Shown in pieces: positions 2,727-55,300 of a stretch of 64,000 nucleotides of DNA. A program made the translations under genes and the position numbers. Numbering within the stretch: the first letter of the stretch is position 1; every line of letters starts with the position of its first letter. The stretch covers positions 56,730,001-56,794,000 of the forward strand of contig NC_043001.1 of NCBI RefSeq assembly GCF_006345805.1, read 5' to 3'. This stretch comes from Octopus sinensis. Its lineage: Eukaryota. The notes under the pieces were generated by a model. It had not been told where the DNA came from. It did not search any database and saw only the letters and a program-made list of their open reading frames with translations.

Positions 2727-3389
2727 TTGTCCATGTTGTATTTTTCTACATACCTTAACATATATTCCAGGCGCCCCGTACCCCCTTTATCATTAATGTG
2801 AACACATATTCTTAATAATTGGTACGACTCTCTGTTTGTCTCTCTCTCTCTCTCATTTTTACTTTCTCTCTATTCATCTTCTCTTTCCTCTGATCCTTTG
2901 GTCTAGTCTTCCACTACCCTCCTATTTCTTTGTCTCGCTCTGCACTCACAGGTCATTCTTCGACACCCATCCCTTCTCCTCTCTGATTCCTTCTTTCTCT
3001 CTCTTCTCTCTCTTTGTTGCGTTTTGTCCCCCTTTTCTCTCTCTCTCTTTCTTTTCTTTTCCCTCTTCTCTGTCACGTGACTGTTGGCCGAAATCTGCCT
3101 TTCAGCTCCTGACCCTCGTCGTGTTAACATCGTTGTTCTTCGTCCGCCGCTATAAAAGCTTTTTCCAATGCGCCAGAGAAAAAAATTGTTTGCTTGTTAT
3201 CAGTCGTAAGACACTTGTTGTTTTCACCGTTAATGCTTCTGTATTTCATGTTTCTGTATTCCATTATTGTTTTTTGTTTTTTTTATATCTGTCCCTTTTG
3301 CTGTCCTGGTGTTCGTATGCATTCGATCCTTCTTCCAGGAAATCTACGCTTCCAGCTTAGTTTTTCTTGGAGGGGGCCGTGCCGTGATC

Positions 3390-3452
3390 TAGTAATCTCA
3401 AGATTAATCAGCCGAAATTACTACGATGATCCGGTTCTTGACTGAAGACTGA
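3390..3452 (+). ncRNA. Candidate non-circularly permuted hammerhead ribozyme, copy 1
   Basis: TAGTAAT-C-TCAAGA..TCAG-cc-GAA-ATTACTA..TCTTGA-CTGAAGA-CTGA gives stem III of 7 bp, stem I of 6 bp, stem II of 4 bp and an AUC triplet (cut after 3397). Confidence 0.65.
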
Positions 3453-4165
3453 GGGGTTCGAATGTCCTGTCCATGTTTATTGTATCGTCTTCTATGAGTT
3501 ATACGTTCTTGTCCATGTTGTATTTTTCTACATACCTTAACATATATTCCAGGCGCCCCGTACCCCCTTATCATTAATGTGAACACATATTCTTAATAAT
3601 TGGTACGACTCTCTGTTTGTCTCTCTCTCTCTCATTTTTACTTTCTCTCTATTCATCTTCTCTTTCCTCTGATCCTTTGGTCTAGTCTTCCACTACCACC
3701 TCCTATTTCTTTGTCTCGCTCTGCACTCACAGGTCATTCTTCGACACCCATCCCTTCTCCTCTCTGATTCCTTCTTTCTCTCTCTTCTCTCTCTTTGTTG
3801 CGTTTTGTCCCCCTTTTCTCTCTCTCTCTTCTTTTCTTTTCCCTCTTCTCTGTCACGTGACTGTTGGCCGAAATCTGCCTTTCAGCTCCTGACCTCGTCG
3901 TGTTAACATCGTTGTTCTTCGTCCGCCGCTATAAAGGCTTTTTCCAATGCGCCAGAGAAAAAATTTGTTTGCTTGTTATCAGTCGCAAGACACTTGTTGT
4001 TTTCACCGTTAATGCTTCTGTATTTCATGTTTCTGTATTCCATTATTGTTTTTTGTTTTTTTTATATCTGTCCCTTTTGCTGTCCTGGTGTTCGTATGCA
4101 TTCGATCCTTCTTCCAGGAAATCTACGCTTCCAGCTTAGTTTTTCTTGGAGGGCTGGCCGTGATC

Positions 4166-4228
4166 TAGTAATCTCAAGATTAATCAGCCGAAATTACTAC
4201 GATGATCCGGTTCTTGACTGAAGACTGA
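4166..4228 (+). ncRNA. Candidate non-circularly permuted hammerhead ribozyme, copy 2
   Basis: Identical to copy 1; predicted cut after 4173. Confidence 0.65.
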
Positions 4229-4934
4229 GGGGTTCGAATGTCCTGTCCATGTTTATTGTATCGTCTTCTATGAGTTATACGTTTTGTCCATGTTGTATTT
4301 TTCTACATACCTTAACATATATTCCAGGCGCCCCGTACCCCCTTTATCATTAATGTGAACACATATTCTTAATAATTGGTACGACTCTGTTTGTCTCTCT
4401 CTCCTTCATTTTTACTTTCTCTCTATTCATCTTCTCTTTCTCTGATCCTTTGGTCTAGTCTTCCACTACCCTCCTATTTCTTTGTCTCGCTCTGCACTCA
4501 CAGGTCATTCTTCGACACCCATCCCTTCTCCTCTCTGATTCCTTCTTTCTCTCTTTCTCTCTCTTTGTTGCGTTTTGTCCCCCTTTTCTCTCTCTCTTCT
4601 TTTCTTTTCCCTCTTCTCTGTCACGTGACTGTTGGCCGAAATCTGCCTTTCAGCTCCTGACCCTCGTCGTGTTAACATCGTTGTTCTTCGTCCGCCGCTA
4701 TAAAGGCTTTTTCCAATGCGCCAGAGAAAAAAATTGTTTGTTTGTTATCAGTCGTAAGACACTTGTTGTTTTCACCGTTAATGCTTCTGTATTTCATGTT
4801 TCTGTATTCCATTATTGTTTTTTGTTTTTTTTATATCTGTCCCTTTTGCTGTCCTGGTGTTCGTATGCATTCGATCCTTCCTCCAGGAAATCTACGCTTC
4901 CAGGTTAGTTTTTCTTGGAGGGCTGGCCGTGATC

Positions 4935-4997
4935 TAGTAATCTCAAGATTAATCAGCCGAAATTACTACGATGATCCGGTTCTTGACTGAAGACTGA
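4935..4997 (+). ncRNA. Candidate non-circularly permuted hammerhead ribozyme, copy 3
   Basis: Identical to copy 1; predicted cut after 4942. Confidence 0.65.
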
Positions 4998-5085
4998 GGG
5001 GTTCGAATGTCCTGTCCATGTTTATTGTATCGTCTTCTATGAGTTATACGTTCTTGTCCATGTTGTATTTTTCTACATACCTTAA

Positions 5086-5301
5086 TATATATATATATAT
5101 ATATATATATGTATAATGCATGGCGCTTCTCAGCATTTTGGGTAAGATCACAGTATATATATATATATATTCATACATACATACATACATACATACATAC
5201 ATACATACATACATACATACATACGTATGTACGTGCGTGTGTGCGTGCGTACCTACGTATATAACTATATATGCATGTATGTATGTATGTATGTATGTAT
5301 G
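5086..5301 (-). repeat. Right arm of the inverted repeat flanking the tandem array
   Basis: Reverse complement of ~2513-2726. Confidence 0.9.
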
Positions 5302-5855
5302 TAAGTCAGGTCACTTTCGAGTGCTACTGGTAATATGTAACCCAGTACAACCTGTTGCATCGTCGGGTCGTCGGTGACTAAACCGGCAACCCCACCAAGC
5401 TTGCTTGGTGAGGAGGGTGTTTATTGGACACCCTGCAGGATGAAAAACAAAACCCGCCAAAGGGCAGAGGAACTCTTGAGAGTGAACGGCCATCCAATAA
5501 ATGTCTGTATCATGCGCGGGGATATAGAAATAATCGGACTGAATACCCGATCGCGCGGTTAAACCATTGGGAGTGAAGGACTCCTAGCCTTTGTTAGGAC
5601 ATCCTTCTAGGAGAAGGTAACTCAGTTAACTGGGATAACTCCGATATAAAACTTGCGGCTGAGTGGTTACCGATGATATTGACTTGTTCTTCTTTTCGGA
5701 TTATGGCTGCTGTTGCTTAGTGAGTGGGGTTGACTCAGTGCACAGCCTTTCCTCCCTTTAAAAAAAATCTTCTTGCACAGGCATTGCACGATAACAACAT
5801 TGATTAAGCTTTCTGCAATGGCCATACTCGATAACGAAGGGGTAGCCACCACCAT
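5302..5855 (+). mobile_element. Non-coding element resembling an RTE-type LINE 5' UTR, embedded in (ATGT)n
   Basis: GC-richer block with RTE 5'UTR-like motifs (ggcaacccc, ctaggagaaggtaactc) and (atgt)n on both sides. Confidence 0.45.
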
Positions 5856-21878: not shown

Positions 21879-22496
21879 TACAACCCCAGAAACAAAGAAG
21901 CCTTCACCATCATCACCCATAATTTACCAATACTACATAAGGACCCCAAATTAAAGGAAATTCTAAACATACATAAAATCATTAAAAGCTACAAACAACC
22001 TGAATCACTTAAAACGATTCTCACAAAGGCAAAATTGTTTTCTGAAATTACGGATGCAAATGTAAAAAAATGTGGTAGACCAAACTGCGCAACATGCCCA
22101 AACCTTCTAGAAGGATCACAATTCCTCTTCAAAAAGGGACAAAAATTCAAGATCAAATCTAACTTTACTTGTGCTTCTGAAAACATAATTTATGTCATAA
22201 GATGCTCGGGCTGCCACCAAAACTACGTGGGTTTCACAGGACTATCACTCAGACGTAGATGCACTCTGCATCGACAACAGATTGCATTCCCAGAATACAG
22301 AATGATACCCTTTAGTGAGCATATTGAGAAATGCGCAAAGCAGCTACTACCACAATTTCTAATCTTTCCATTTTATCAATGTGCTATTAGAACACCAACA
22401 CAAATTAGACTAAACAAGGAAACATTCTTCATTGAAAAATATAAGCCCAAACTTAACCATTCTAACATTCTTATACAGAGAAACTCACCCCATTAA
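21879..22496 (+). CDS. 5'-truncated Neptune-like PLE ORF: linker, Cys-rich motif and GIY-YIG endonuclease
   Basis: Open frame YNPRNKEAF...SYKQPESL...CGRPNCATC...FTCASENIIYVIRCSGCHQNYVGFTG.SLRRRCTLH...EHIEKC...KETFFIEKYKPKLN*. It starts directly at a (TA)n tract. Confidence 0.92.
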   Translation, partial: YNPRNKEAFTIITHNLPILHKDPKLKEILNIHKIIKSYKQPESLKTILTKAKLFSEITDANVKKCGRPNCATCPNLLEGSQFLFKKGQKFKIKSNFTCASENIIYVIRCSGCHQNYVGFTGLSLRRRCTLHRQQIAFPEYRMIPFSEHIEKCAKQLLPQFLIFPFYQCAIRTPTQIRLNKETFFIEKYKPKLNHSNILIQRNSPH

Positions 22497-22617
22497 ATAA
22501 AAGGGAAAGGAAATATAAAGCGATTGTCTCCCTTATACCGGAAGAAATCGCTAATTACCTCCCCCTACCTGGAACTCTCCTTTGCACTTCATAACGAAGA
22601 AATAACAAGATGTTTTG

Positions 22618-22654
22618 AGAAATTTGAAAAGTTAACACGAAACCGGTAATTTCT
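22618..22654 (+). ncRNA. Minimal type I hammerhead ribozyme with U3-A8 covariation in the PLE pLTR
   Basis: AGAAAT-TTGAAAA-GT-taac-AC-GAAA-CCGG-T-A-ATTTCT: 6-bp stem I, palindromic stem III (ACCGGT), GUA triplet. Confidence 0.75.
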
Positions 22655-22818
22655 TCAAAGACTATGTCACTGTATGAAAAAAAATTTATAACATTCTCCG
22701 GACATAATGACTCAAATATATATTTTAACCTTTTAAAACAACCCTTCTGTAGTTTTTCACTTTTTACTATTTTCTATATATTCAACCACGTGCTTTCACA
22801 CACCAACTTTCTCAACCT

Positions 22819-22854
<36 letters not shown>

Positions 22855-24679: not shown

Positions 24680-25360
24680 TTCCAAGTAAGTTTTTATCTT
24701 AATAATTATGATGCGCACTCCTCTATCTCTCTTTCCCTCTCTTGTTCTTCATCCTTTCTGTTTTTCTCTCCCACCCTTCCCTATTCTTCTCCTCTCCCCT
24801 TCATTGTTCCCTCTCTCTTACTCCTCCTCGACTCTCATCACTGACACGTGATCAGAGGGAAACCATCTTTCCGACTGCTATCTTCACCAAGATAAGGCCG
24901 TTTATCCTGTCTCTCTCACAATAAGCTGTCTCCTCAAGCGTTCAAAATAATTTTTCCATCGTCTTGGTTTAACAGCCCTCATCGTTTGTTTTTACTGTGT
25001 TAGTCTCTTTGTTCTGTCTTTTACTGTTTTTAATTTTATTGTTTTTACTGTCTTTTTGTTCGTACTGTCTTTTTGTTCGTACTGTCCTGTTCTTTTTTCC
25101 ATTTTTACCCCACCGCAAAAAATCCCAAATTTTATTTAATTTGCTTTGCGGGAAGGACTGTTTCAATGAAGTCGCGCCTTGTCCTTACCTTCGAAAACGC
25201 GGGGTAGACGAAGCAGGGACAACTGAAGAAGGGGAATATTCCTTGTGTTGTATGTCTTGTACTCTGTTCTTTCGTTGTTTGAAAAATAGTTCGTTTCCAT
25301 GTTTTTGTTTTTATGTTTTCGTTTCACATTGTGTTCAACGTTTTTTTTATGTCCTGTACC
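24680..25360 (+). mobile_element. Single-copy non-coding element with the same architecture as the 775-bp unit
   Basis: Same order of parts: tcttaataatt, CT-rich tract, CACGTG (24845), T-rich tract, permuted HHR motif, tgtgttgtatgtc tail. Confidence 0.55.
25173..25232 (+). ncRNA. Degenerate non-circularly permuted HHR motif
   Basis: CGCG-cc-TTGTCC..CCT-tc-GAAAA-CGCG..GGACAA-CTGAAGA-AGG. The triplet appears mutated (GCC) and there is an extra A after GAAA. Confidence 0.5.
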
Positions 25361-25451
25361 CATATATGCATGTATATATACATATAGATGTAGGTATGTA
25401 CATATATGTATGTATATATGCATATATTTATATATTTTATTATTATTATAG

Positions 25452-28562: not shown

Positions 28563-28689
28563 GTAGAGTAAATTTTGTAGCTTATAAACGTAATATTTCA
28601 TATTTTCTTAATACCAGTTCCCATATTACATTTACATCTGCACTAGGTCTGCTTAGGAGATTATTGTGTCCTAGCATATGTACTGGCTC

Positions 28690-30400
28690 TTTTAATATTC
28701 GTATTTTCCAGTGGTTGTCTCTGTCTATTATTTAAACTTCACTCCGCAGAGGGAGGTGGTCTCTGTTTTCCCCATACATGAGCGGCTATACCCGATTTTG
28801 CAGCATCCTCTCGCTTCACAGCTTTACGATGTTCCTCTACCCTTATTTTAAGGAGGAGGTATGTTTCGCTTTTGTATAACCTACTGCAAATGCATGGGTT
28901 GGAGTACACGCAGCATTTGGTCATATTTTCTTCTATGGGTGGATTTACTCAGAGGAGGTATTTGCAAAGTGTCGTATTACTTCCGAATATTGTCCTAGAG
29001 GCCTTTGACATGGGTAGACAGACTGCGGTCAGTTTATGGGTTTTATCCCGTTTCGTATTCCTAATTGGAGTAGATAGTATGTTTTCTGGATAGTTGTTGC
29101 ATAATAGGTTGTTTCTTAGCCTGATAATTTCTTCCTAGTGTGTGACAGGATCGCTACTTATAGTCTTTGCTCGATGTTTTAGGCACTGAGCAATCCTTGT
29201 ATGGATGGTGGGAATTGAAGTTGAGGTATTGTCCAGTGAAGGTTGGCTTACGATATACGAATGTCCTGAACCCATACTCAGTGCGTGTTATTAATACATC
29301 CAGGAATGCCAGTGTTGGGTCTGTTGTCAGTACTTCATTGGCATGAAGTAATCTTTGTTCTTGATTAAGATCTGTGACAACTTCCTCTCTGTTTTCAGAG
29401 TTGGATCTTTTTTTATTTTGCTGTAGCTTTCTTCAATTATGAGACTTGCTAATTTTACCGAGTATTCAGACTTGTTCATTCGCCGGAAATATGGTGGAAC
29501 TGTCACTCTGTAATGTTTTGATAGCGAATTTTTCTCCCTAGAGATGTTTGGTTTGGGAAGTTTCCTTTTCTTTAGTACCTTCTCAACAGGGGCTAGGCTA
29601 TTATGTCCAAGTATAAGGCGGCGAGCTGGCAGAAACGTTAGCACACCGGGCGAAATGCGTAGCCGTATTTCGTCTGCCGTTACTTTCTGAGTTCAAATTC
29701 TGCAGAGGTCGACATTGCCTTTCATCCTTTCGGGGTCGATAAATTAAGTACCAGTTACGCACTGGGGTCGATGTAATCGACTTAATCCGTTTGACTGTCT
29801 TTGTTTGTCCCCTCAGTGTTTAGCCCCTTGTGGGTAGTAAAAAAATATACATTATGTCCAAGTATGGAATGCGCTTGATGGTTGTCGCAAAGTTGAAACC
29901 TTTGTTTAGTACTGCTTCTTCAGAGTTGTCCAGATGTCGCCTACTTACGTTAATTACTGCTTTCACAGGTAGGTGATGGACTTTGGTCTTCATTCTCTGA
30001 ATATTGAGCTTCATAAGCTTCTTTACCTGGCGTGTCTTCACCTTCTCAAATTCTTTCTTGCACGACTTTTCTAGATCTTGTTGGATTCTCTCTCTACCAT
30101 CCTCTCTGGTTATTCTCCCAAATAATGAAGACAATCTGTCTCTGATTTCGTTATTTAGTTGATGTTTTTCCAATGGTTATAATGGATCCTCTCATGGGCG
30201 AGGGCGTGCCCTGTTTTTTCCGCTACTCTCCGAGCATTATTTGAATTCACTGATGTCATTACAGTCAGTCCAGGTGACATTAGCTTTGAGTCTCTACATC
30301 TACACAGAAACGTTAGATGGCTTGAAAGACCATCTAGTTTCTAATAGAGTTTCTCAGTATGTCTCCATTGAAGTCTAATGTTGACTCCGTACCGATTAGT
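28690..30400 (-). mobile_element. Penelope/Poseidon-type PLE, internally deleted and interrupted by a SINE
   Basis: N-terminal VINVSRRHLDNSEEAVLNKGFNFA..IPYLDI; KKDPTLK; RT end LAFLDVLITR..FRTFVYRKPTFTGQYLNFNSHHP; GIY-YIG CVYSNPCICSRLY..ET..L..RVEEH..SGIAAHVW. The RT core is missing. Confidence 0.88.
29615..29850 (+). mobile_element. Young full-length family A SINE with a perfect 15-bp TSD
   Basis: attatgtccaagtat occurs at 29600-29614 and 29851-29865. Confidence 0.95.
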
Positions 30401-36821: not shown

Positions 36822-37480
<659 letters not shown>

Positions 37481-43131: not shown

Positions 43132-43312
43132 AGCCATGCTAGATCGTTAGCCACTACACACATTTTTTCTCTCCTTGTTTTTTCTGTGTCCTTTTCTATT
43201 GAAGAGCGTAGGCTCGAAACGTAAAAGACTTTTTATATTCCTGAGCGTTATCTAATACCTCTGTTTGTTTGTACACCACCTGTCTCCGTCTTTTGTTTTT
43301 TTTCGTAAACTC
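43132..43312 (+). mobile_element. ~180-bp PLE pLTR-derived mini-element with HHR motif (43191-43227)
   Basis: ctttt-CTATTGA-A-GAGC-gtag-GCTC-GAAA-CGT-A-aaag, inserted in a microsatellite tract. Confidence 0.7.
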
Positions 43313-55140: not shown

Positions 55141-55143
55141 CTA

Positions 55144-55300
55144 TCTACGACTATAGCACGTTGAATGCACTGGTTCTTGACCGGTCGCCGAAGTTAAACA
55201 ACATCGAGACTAGTAAGTATTTAGATGGGTGACCGTTAGGGGAACTGAGGGGTCTTGTGAGTAGATTTGGTAGACGGAAATGAAAGAAGCCTGTCGTATA

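Follow-up and report, generated by a model that had tools for sequence, protein, structure and literature searches.

A candidate hammerhead of non-circular S-G-C block order in high-copy, non-coding tandem retroelements of an octopus

The stretch of octopus DNA analysed here (64,000 nucleotides, called the window) contains a decayed copy of what appears to be a hammerhead ribozyme whose three sequence blocks follow one another in the order S-G-C. The motif occurs once per unit in high-copy, protein-less, TA-flanked tandem retroelements, and we consider it probable that its intact copies form a pseudoknotted hammerhead, which would cut multimeric transcripts into units that are copied by a Penelope-type reverse transcriptase (RT). 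Judged by their sequence, these elements are a retrozyme-like family of animal retroelements with the type-SGC hammerhead fold. In the literature covered, this non-circular permutation of an RNA catalyst is reported once before, from environmental RNA whose hosts were unidentified (PMC10085705), whereas here it is chromosomal and found in an animal.

The S-G-C motif of the window and its host element

The motif core lies on the + strand at positions 25173-25234. Read 5′ to 3′, it consists of block S (a stem III strand, the triplet and a stem I strand), block G (a stem II strand, GAAA and a stem III strand), a 15-nt linker, and block C (a stem I strand, CUGAAGA and a stem II strand). The order is non-circular, in that no cut point of a circle converts it to type I, II or III. 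The features of the motif and of the elements that carry it in the window are the following.

2728..5085, +: F1 array of three head-to-tail units of ~770 nt, with S-G-C motifs at 3390-3452, 4166-4228 and 4935-4997
24680..25450, +: F2 non-coding retroelement, a nearly complete 786-nt unit flanked by (TACA)n/(TA)n tracts
24845..24850, +: CACGTG motif, at a position common to six of eight families; a promoter role is a guess
25158..25164, +: candidate helix P0, 5′ strand, pairing with 25210-25216 (79% paired, 3 of 7 pairs two-sided; weak against shuffles)
25173..25177, +: block S, stem III strand (16.5-16.1); 25177 reads C instead of the U16.1 usual in the family
25178..25178, +: C17; by analogy with the hammerhead core, an intact copy would be cut between 25178 and 25179
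25179..25184, +: block S, stem I strand, pairing across families
25189..25192, +: block G, putative stem II strand in the register that ends in C11.1 (25188-25190 in an earlier note)
25193..25197, +: GAAA core with one extra A in the window copy (extra A in 8 of 47 F2 copies)
25198..25201, +: block G, stem III strand, pairing across families
25210..25216, +: candidate helix P0, 3′ strand, flush with stem I
25217..25222, +: block C, stem I strand, pairing across families
25223..25229, +: CUGAAGA core (C3-A9), the family majority
25230..25234, +: extra A after A9, then putative stem II strand G10.1-G10.4, a layout as in the resident type I motifs

The earlier note, written from the letters of the window, had described a permuted hammerhead at 25173-25232. 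Its letters and block order are borne out, the same order recurs in the three F1 copies (3390-4997), and stem I (TTGTCC/GGACAA), stem III (CGCG/CGCG) and the core CTGAAGA read as it claimed. The linkers that it gave for F1 as 3 and 15 nt are in fact 4 and 12 nt. The host element, placed by the note at 24680-25360, does start there but runs on to about 25450, by comparison with the 786-nt dimer L280. The CACGTG that the note saw in a shared layout is present at 24845 and precedes the core by a similar distance in six families (F1, F1b, F1c, F2, F2b and F4), but was seen in only 1 of 26 F3 and in none of 30 F5 copies, many being 5′-truncated.

The core-letter pattern has four matches in the 64-kb window, namely the window copy and the three F1 motifs, against 0.05 expected, and none of 100 shuffles reached four. 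No hammerhead family was present among the 150 best of 299 matches in an Rfam scan of the window, which was expected because the stems cross.

The window copy carries two defects, a change of U16.1 to C, which gives a GCC triplet, and an extra A in GAAA. The note had recognised both as mutations, and the family majority indeed differs at both positions. With GUC present in 42 of 47 F2 copies, three of which show no defect at all, the window copy is a decayed member of its family and is predicted to be catalytically dead.

Families and copy number

A 201-nt F2 query gave 2835 first-look candidates, 40 of which were scored (92-100% identity). Among 47 distinct F2 copies, the triplet was GUC in 42, AUC in 2, AUU in 1, GCC in 1 (the window copy) and unassigned in 1; CTGAAGA was found in 44. 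The GAAAC region was less well kept, with 20 copies reading GAAAC, 8 having the extra A, and 19 other changes; the extra-A copies are enriched because the first query carried that A. Three copies (L275, L289 and L294) were intact throughout, and the F2 majority has GUC and GAAAC and retains the stem pairings.

Eight families were recovered, in two lineages: F2, F2b, F3, F4 and F5 make up lineage A, which also has single variants in L093 and L262, and F1, F1b and F1c make up lineage B. The list, obtained by scanning flanking DNA with a descriptor and by chained DNA searches with 40 candidates scored in each, is incomplete. Intact natural copies of other families include L062 (F3), L101 (F4), L218 (F5), L031 (F1) and L189 (F1b). 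CUGANGA directly between stems I and II is the majority in all eight families, and GAAA between stems II and III, together with A15.1-U16.1, stands in the family majorities, though not in the window copy. The triplets across families are GUC, GUA, GUU and AUC, all of them NUH; GUC, AUC and GUA are reported to cleave (PMC1636495). The families differ in age, F1, F1c and F3 being young (99-100% alike) and F4 old (about 86%).

Six copies were found in 60 evenly spaced 10-kb stretches of ten contigs (600 kb), or about one per 100 kb, two of the six having helped to build the model. If the sampled contigs are typical, this corresponds to ∼27,000 copies (Poisson range 10,000-59,000) in the 2.72-Gb genome. 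A strict scan of the same sample returned six CGS (type I), one GSC and one SGC motif, and three shuffles gave two SCG and one CSG. F2 also matched contigs of sequencing runs from three organisms (5537, 4315 and 59 contigs) and none of a fourth, counts which indicate presence only.

Stems I and III covary among families

F1 and F2, and with them the two lineages, are alignable nowhere outside low-complexity tracts. Comparison of F1 with F2 alone is thus not strict covariation, since the sequences do not align, and it is the further families recovered in this analysis that supply the strict evidence. In the family majorities, all 40 cells of stem I (positions 1-5) and all 40 cells of stem III (1-5) pair over the eight families, and every family-level difference in stem I (1-5) and stem III (2-5) is two-sided. 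For the alignable families F2, F3, F4 and F5, all 36 cells pair and 8 extra pair types occur, a result reached by none of 100,000 shuffles, in a test that takes no account of relatedness. In none of their 6 family pairs does any of the 13 core letters differ, while 4 to 14 of the 18 stem letters do. Stem III reads CGCG/CGCG in F2, TACG/CGTA in F3, CGTA/TACG in F4 and CGTG/CACG in F5; in lineage B it is TAGTAA/TTACTA (F1) or GCAA/TTGC (F1b). Variation is also found within F5, where a single pair of stem I reads C-G in 18 of 30 copies and U-A in 9.

In nine rows picked by hand for good preservation, 13 of 22 pairs were two-sided, and 91% were paired, compared to 42-52% in slid controls. As an outside control, none of the core-letter matches listed from viral (120) and metagenome (117) sequences formed stems I and III, as against 186 of 229 family-selected loci of the host genome. 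One measure counts against our main reading: decay of single F2 copies was about equal in the core (0.022) and elsewhere (0.026). The note had proposed that the permuted fold is conserved by selection in more than one family and is unlikely to be due to chance. With stems I and III (1-5) paired throughout eight families, both proposals hold, on far firmer ground than a pair of families could offer, and the fold, as judged by these comparisons, is real and under selection.

Units, arrays and insertion pattern

The motif resides in non-coding units of less than 1 kb, one per unit, arranged head-to-tail and pyrimidine-rich on the ribozyme strand. Unit lengths are 756-812 nt for F1 and 858-898 nt for F3, both measured in arrays, and 786 nt for F2 (dimer L280). 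No protein match was found in the units, where stop-free frames are low-complexity, nor was any frame for an RT plus GIY-YIG domain.

Copies have ragged 5′ ends, whereas their 3′ ends lie at TA tracts about 90-330 nt past the core. Of 227 copies, 182 had a (TA)5 tract within 60-420 nt downstream, where the background is 20%, a count that is inflated in lineage A by a TA-rich segment inside the unit. In 13 of the 227, an inverted piece of the element itself lies upstream. Stretches from downstream of the core reappear upstream of it, so that copies are permuted. Tandems, ragged 5′ ends, inverted 5′ pieces and a TA bias together match what has been described for the insertions of Penelope-like elements. 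As a test of rolling-circle copying, divergence of F1 units was compared within and between arrays, and was 2.27% and 2.12%, respectively.

An 862-nt "F2 tandem" in L277 was rejected, as it proved to be a local duplication with unique flank. In the window, the F1 array is enclosed by a 211-nt inverted repeat (85%; 2516-2726 and 5093-5303), which may be a small inverted-repeat element that was targeted at its central TA tract.

Relation to known hammerheads and retroelements

The S-G-C order is that of type SGC, one of three non-circular permutations described by Eckert et al. (2023, PMC10085705). HRIMA-1 and its variants, the published type SGC RNAs, resemble the octopus motif in block order, in their three mutually crossing stems, in size, in a 3-4-nt link between stems I and II (3-5 nt here, depending on family and register), and in one extra base after A9, which is U in these RNAs (PMC10085705). 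They came from metatranscriptomes of viroid-like RNAs and were shown by experiment to cleave, at 0.007-0.19 per min, whereas the octopus motif is known from DNA, as part of chromosomal animal retroelements. In its accessible sections, that paper places no such RNA in the genome of a known organism, except for one GCS candidate in a bacterium, and leaves the origin of the non-circular permutation open. Its search needed CUGAUGA(U)G and would therefore have missed the octopus motifs, which have CUGAWGA followed by A.

In organisation, the octopus units resemble the non-LTR retrozymes of animals, which are also non-coding tandem units of less than 1 kb with one hammerhead each (PMC7229834; 10.64898/2026.07.22.740005), of low GC, present as dispersed monomers and arrays in genomes that also have Penelope-like elements (PMC7229834). 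They differ in two respects, as retrozymes are defined and searched for through type I hammerheads, and have been shown to give circular RNA, while the octopus units carry type SGC and are known from genomic sequence (PMC7229834; 10.64898/2026.07.22.740005). Since their order is S-G-C and not type I, they are presumably retrozyme-like in working, yet fall outside the retrozyme definition. The likeness extends to Penelope-like elements, whose copies likewise have ragged 5′ ends, carry inverted pieces and insert at TA targets (10.1101/2021.04.23.441226), and to the hammerheads of Penelope terminal repeats, which have an extra base between A9 and G10.1 and a G10.1-C11.1 pair (PMC4209133). The latter, however, are of type I with a palindromic helix III of 1-2 bp, against 5-7 bp and no coding frame in the octopus elements (PMC4209133).

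A literature search whose coverage took in few subscription papers returned Eckert et al. as the sole source on type SGC or non-circular hammerheads with retrotransposons, and no report of an S-G-C element in work on octopus, cephalopods, Penelope or retrozymes. The accessible sections of the giant squid paper give type I hits only; those of a 2026 paper mention hammerhead permutations in passing, and those of the retrozyme survey of Li, Clavereau and Pollet (2026; 10.64898/2026.07.22.740005) name no mollusc.

Proposed cycle, stem II and expected activity

In the cycle that we propose, a + strand multimeric transcript would be cut after position 17 in each unit. The monomer would then be ligated into a circle, with stem III (5-7 bp) and perhaps P0 docking its 3′ end. 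A Penelope-type enzyme would nick (TA)n, and reverse transcription would be primed inside the TA-rich segment of the unit; copying through an intact cleavage site would yield permuted and longer-than-unit copies. The fixed genomic end does not coincide with the predicted cleavage site, as would be expected if the template were circular or uncut. Minimal type I motifs in the style of those resident in this genome have a helix III of 1-2 bp and need dimers (PMC4209133); the S-G-C wiring, unlike theirs, would provide a full helix III within one molecule. In contigs of four presumed RNA runs, neither a start nor an end nor a joint could be made out for F1, and one 845-nt, terminally redundant F1 contig fits a tandem and a circle equally.

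The catalytic reading is weakest at stem II. In lineage A, the extra A followed by a 4-bp GGGG/CTTC stem II (G10.1-C11.1) holds in all five families; this stem includes two G-U pairs, has a stability of -4.1 kcal/mol and shows only one two-sided change. A competing 5-bp register, which pairs G8 and A9, reaches -8.7 kcal/mol in F2, F2b and F5 and -9.7 kcal/mol in F3, and is absent in F4. The CCT/AGG stem II read by the note in F2 is probably in the wrong register, with no two-sided change and two of three pairs failing in F4. Lineage B has four more bases after A9 and admits two options: a CC bulge before G12, with pairing in all three families, or a 5-nt insert after A9, with 4 bp in F1b and F1c and 2 bp in F1. 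We know of no report that either the 2-nt bulge before G12 or the 5-nt insert after A9 is tolerated. A 2-nt insert before GAAA, which the note held to be shared by both families, is retained for the lineage of F1 in the bulge reading and is probably wrong for that of F2, as it fails in F4.

Candidate helix P0, between the 5′ flank and the linker, would extend stem III. In the hand-picked rows it is 79% paired, with 3 of 7 pairs two-sided; against 500 flank shuffles the counts were 24 (F2), 1 (F2b), 87 (F3), 35 (F4), 192 (F5), 81 (F1), 363 (F1b) and 280 (F1c). The fourth helix of published type SGC forms between the G-C linker and 3′ tail (PMC10085705), whereas the 5′ flank offers the better candidate here, outscoring the linker/3′ tail helix in 6 of 8 families; the best duplexes of the latter kind range from -3.6 to -8.3 kcal/mol, with no fixed register. 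Nested folding gave z near 0 with other hairpins preferred, which counts against the main reading. In lineage B, the 5′ flank (4143-4157 in the window and its equivalents; TCTTGG, then GGCTGG) can pair with strands of both stem I and stem II, in the manner of a coreless block C, and may be either an off-fold or a relic of rearrangement.

It is unlikely, though worth serious attention, that the fold is real and selected but the ribozyme slow or conditional, the template being mostly uncut multimeric RNA. Catalysis would then be held off by the G8-A9 register or a 3′ hairpin, or would need a protein or a second molecule. The competing register is indeed more stable by about 4.6 kcal/mol, arrays of at least seven units exist, and a core deletion is common to both units of dimer L280; metazoan Penelope hammerheads, moreover, cleave poorly in vitro (PMC4209133). 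Yet that register is missing from F4, a full helix III would do away with the dimers that are usually needed, and the invariant core with an NUH triplet over eight families argues for catalysis. Against ready cleavage in our main reading, we also count that in Xenopus only 1 of 9 predicted retrozymes cleaved (10.64898/2026.07.22.740005).

Penelope-like elements and resident type I motifs

Intact-looking Penelope-like elements, with frames of 775-883 aa, are present in the genome. At 50 GIY-YIG loci (30 and then 20 examined, of at least 5029 candidates), none had the motif in its own terminal repeat. An S-G-C element lay near six of the 50, in either orientation, which we read as the use of common TA targets. 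In a single case, L262 (contig C18, reverse-complement position about 2690), an S-G-C element is joined directly to a Penelope 3′ end with no TA spacer; this junction would fit a template jump by the RT of that Penelope element.

It seems improbable to us that an undetected autonomous Penelope-like element, served by the ribozyme, has left the units as its solo terminal repeats (pseudo-LTRs). The terminal repeats of Penelope elements do bear hammerheads (PMC4209133) and have relatives among the animal retrozymes (10.64898/2026.07.22.740005), one copy is joined to a Penelope 3′ end (L262), and only 50 of the at least 5029 GIY-YIG candidates were covered. The arrays, however, repeat the unit with no coding part, no in-line Penelope protein match was found at the family-centred copies (loci L001-L240), and the Penelope elements observed here bear type I motifs.

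Lineage B has ATCAGCCGAAA in common with the resident type I motifs, and lineage A has GACA-N-CTGATGAAGG and GCTCGAAA in common with them. The short block sequences that each lineage thus shares with a resident type I family suggest, at the level of sequence, a rearrangement in place. More tentatively, and with doubts that outweigh our confidence, we propose that tens of thousands of retroelements run on an active non-circular hammerhead which arose in place by block reshuffling of a resident Penelope type I motif, the eight families being a surviving series and lineage B a new core variant. If this were true, in-place rewiring would have turned a dimer-dependent ribozyme into a monomer that cuts and re-closes.

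Several other sequences of these kinds were noted. A type I motif with U3-A8 was seen by eye in the 3′ end of a Neptune-like family (L252, and L262 at reverse-complement positions 2640-2690). Two minimal type I hammerhead-like motifs lie in the window at 43195 and 43850 (+); they belong to a common family, many copies of which carry T or G at position 6. A short inverted-repeat sequence in L021 (1913-2010) and L123 matches the type I descriptor on each of its strands. At 21882-22820 (+), between TA tracts, the window has a 5′-truncated Penelope-type GIY-YIG end together with the 3′ region that follows; it lies 1.9 kb upstream of the S-G-C element and is separate from it. At 28600-30176 (-) there is a decayed RT-endonuclease remnant, broken by another repeat, which we take from its motifs to be Penelope-like.

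Remaining alternatives and implications

Production of circles through splicing signals in the unit, with the hammerhead secondary, seems very improbable. A donor-like AA/GTAAGT is found at the unit end in F2, F4 and F5 (24683-24689 in the window; L280, L211-L240), and F3 and F5 have an acceptor-like TTTTGCAG/G ahead of the motif, but this acceptor-like site is missing from F2 and F4, the whole unit is retained in genomic copies, and the F1 contigs contain no spliced joint. A chance pairing spread by the copying of a selfish repeat is hardly credible and already contradicted, for although high copy number is uninformative on function and the families are related, all family changes in stem I (1-5) and stem III (2-5) are two-sided around a fixed core, and none of the 237 chance matches listed forms both stems.

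As these elements are chromosomal, come in families of different ages and lie beside likely type I relatives, the origin, folding and rate of a candidate non-circular hammerhead can be tested on natural sequences. Surveys of retrozymes and Penelope elements use type I or III descriptors, to which S-G-C elements are therefore invisible; families reported as hammerhead-free merit a rescan with all six block orders.

Two further sequences of the window, U6-like at 37157-37254 (-) and 5S-like at 55143-55263 (+), are above the Rfam gathering score, with deletions or changes, and are likely retrocopies.
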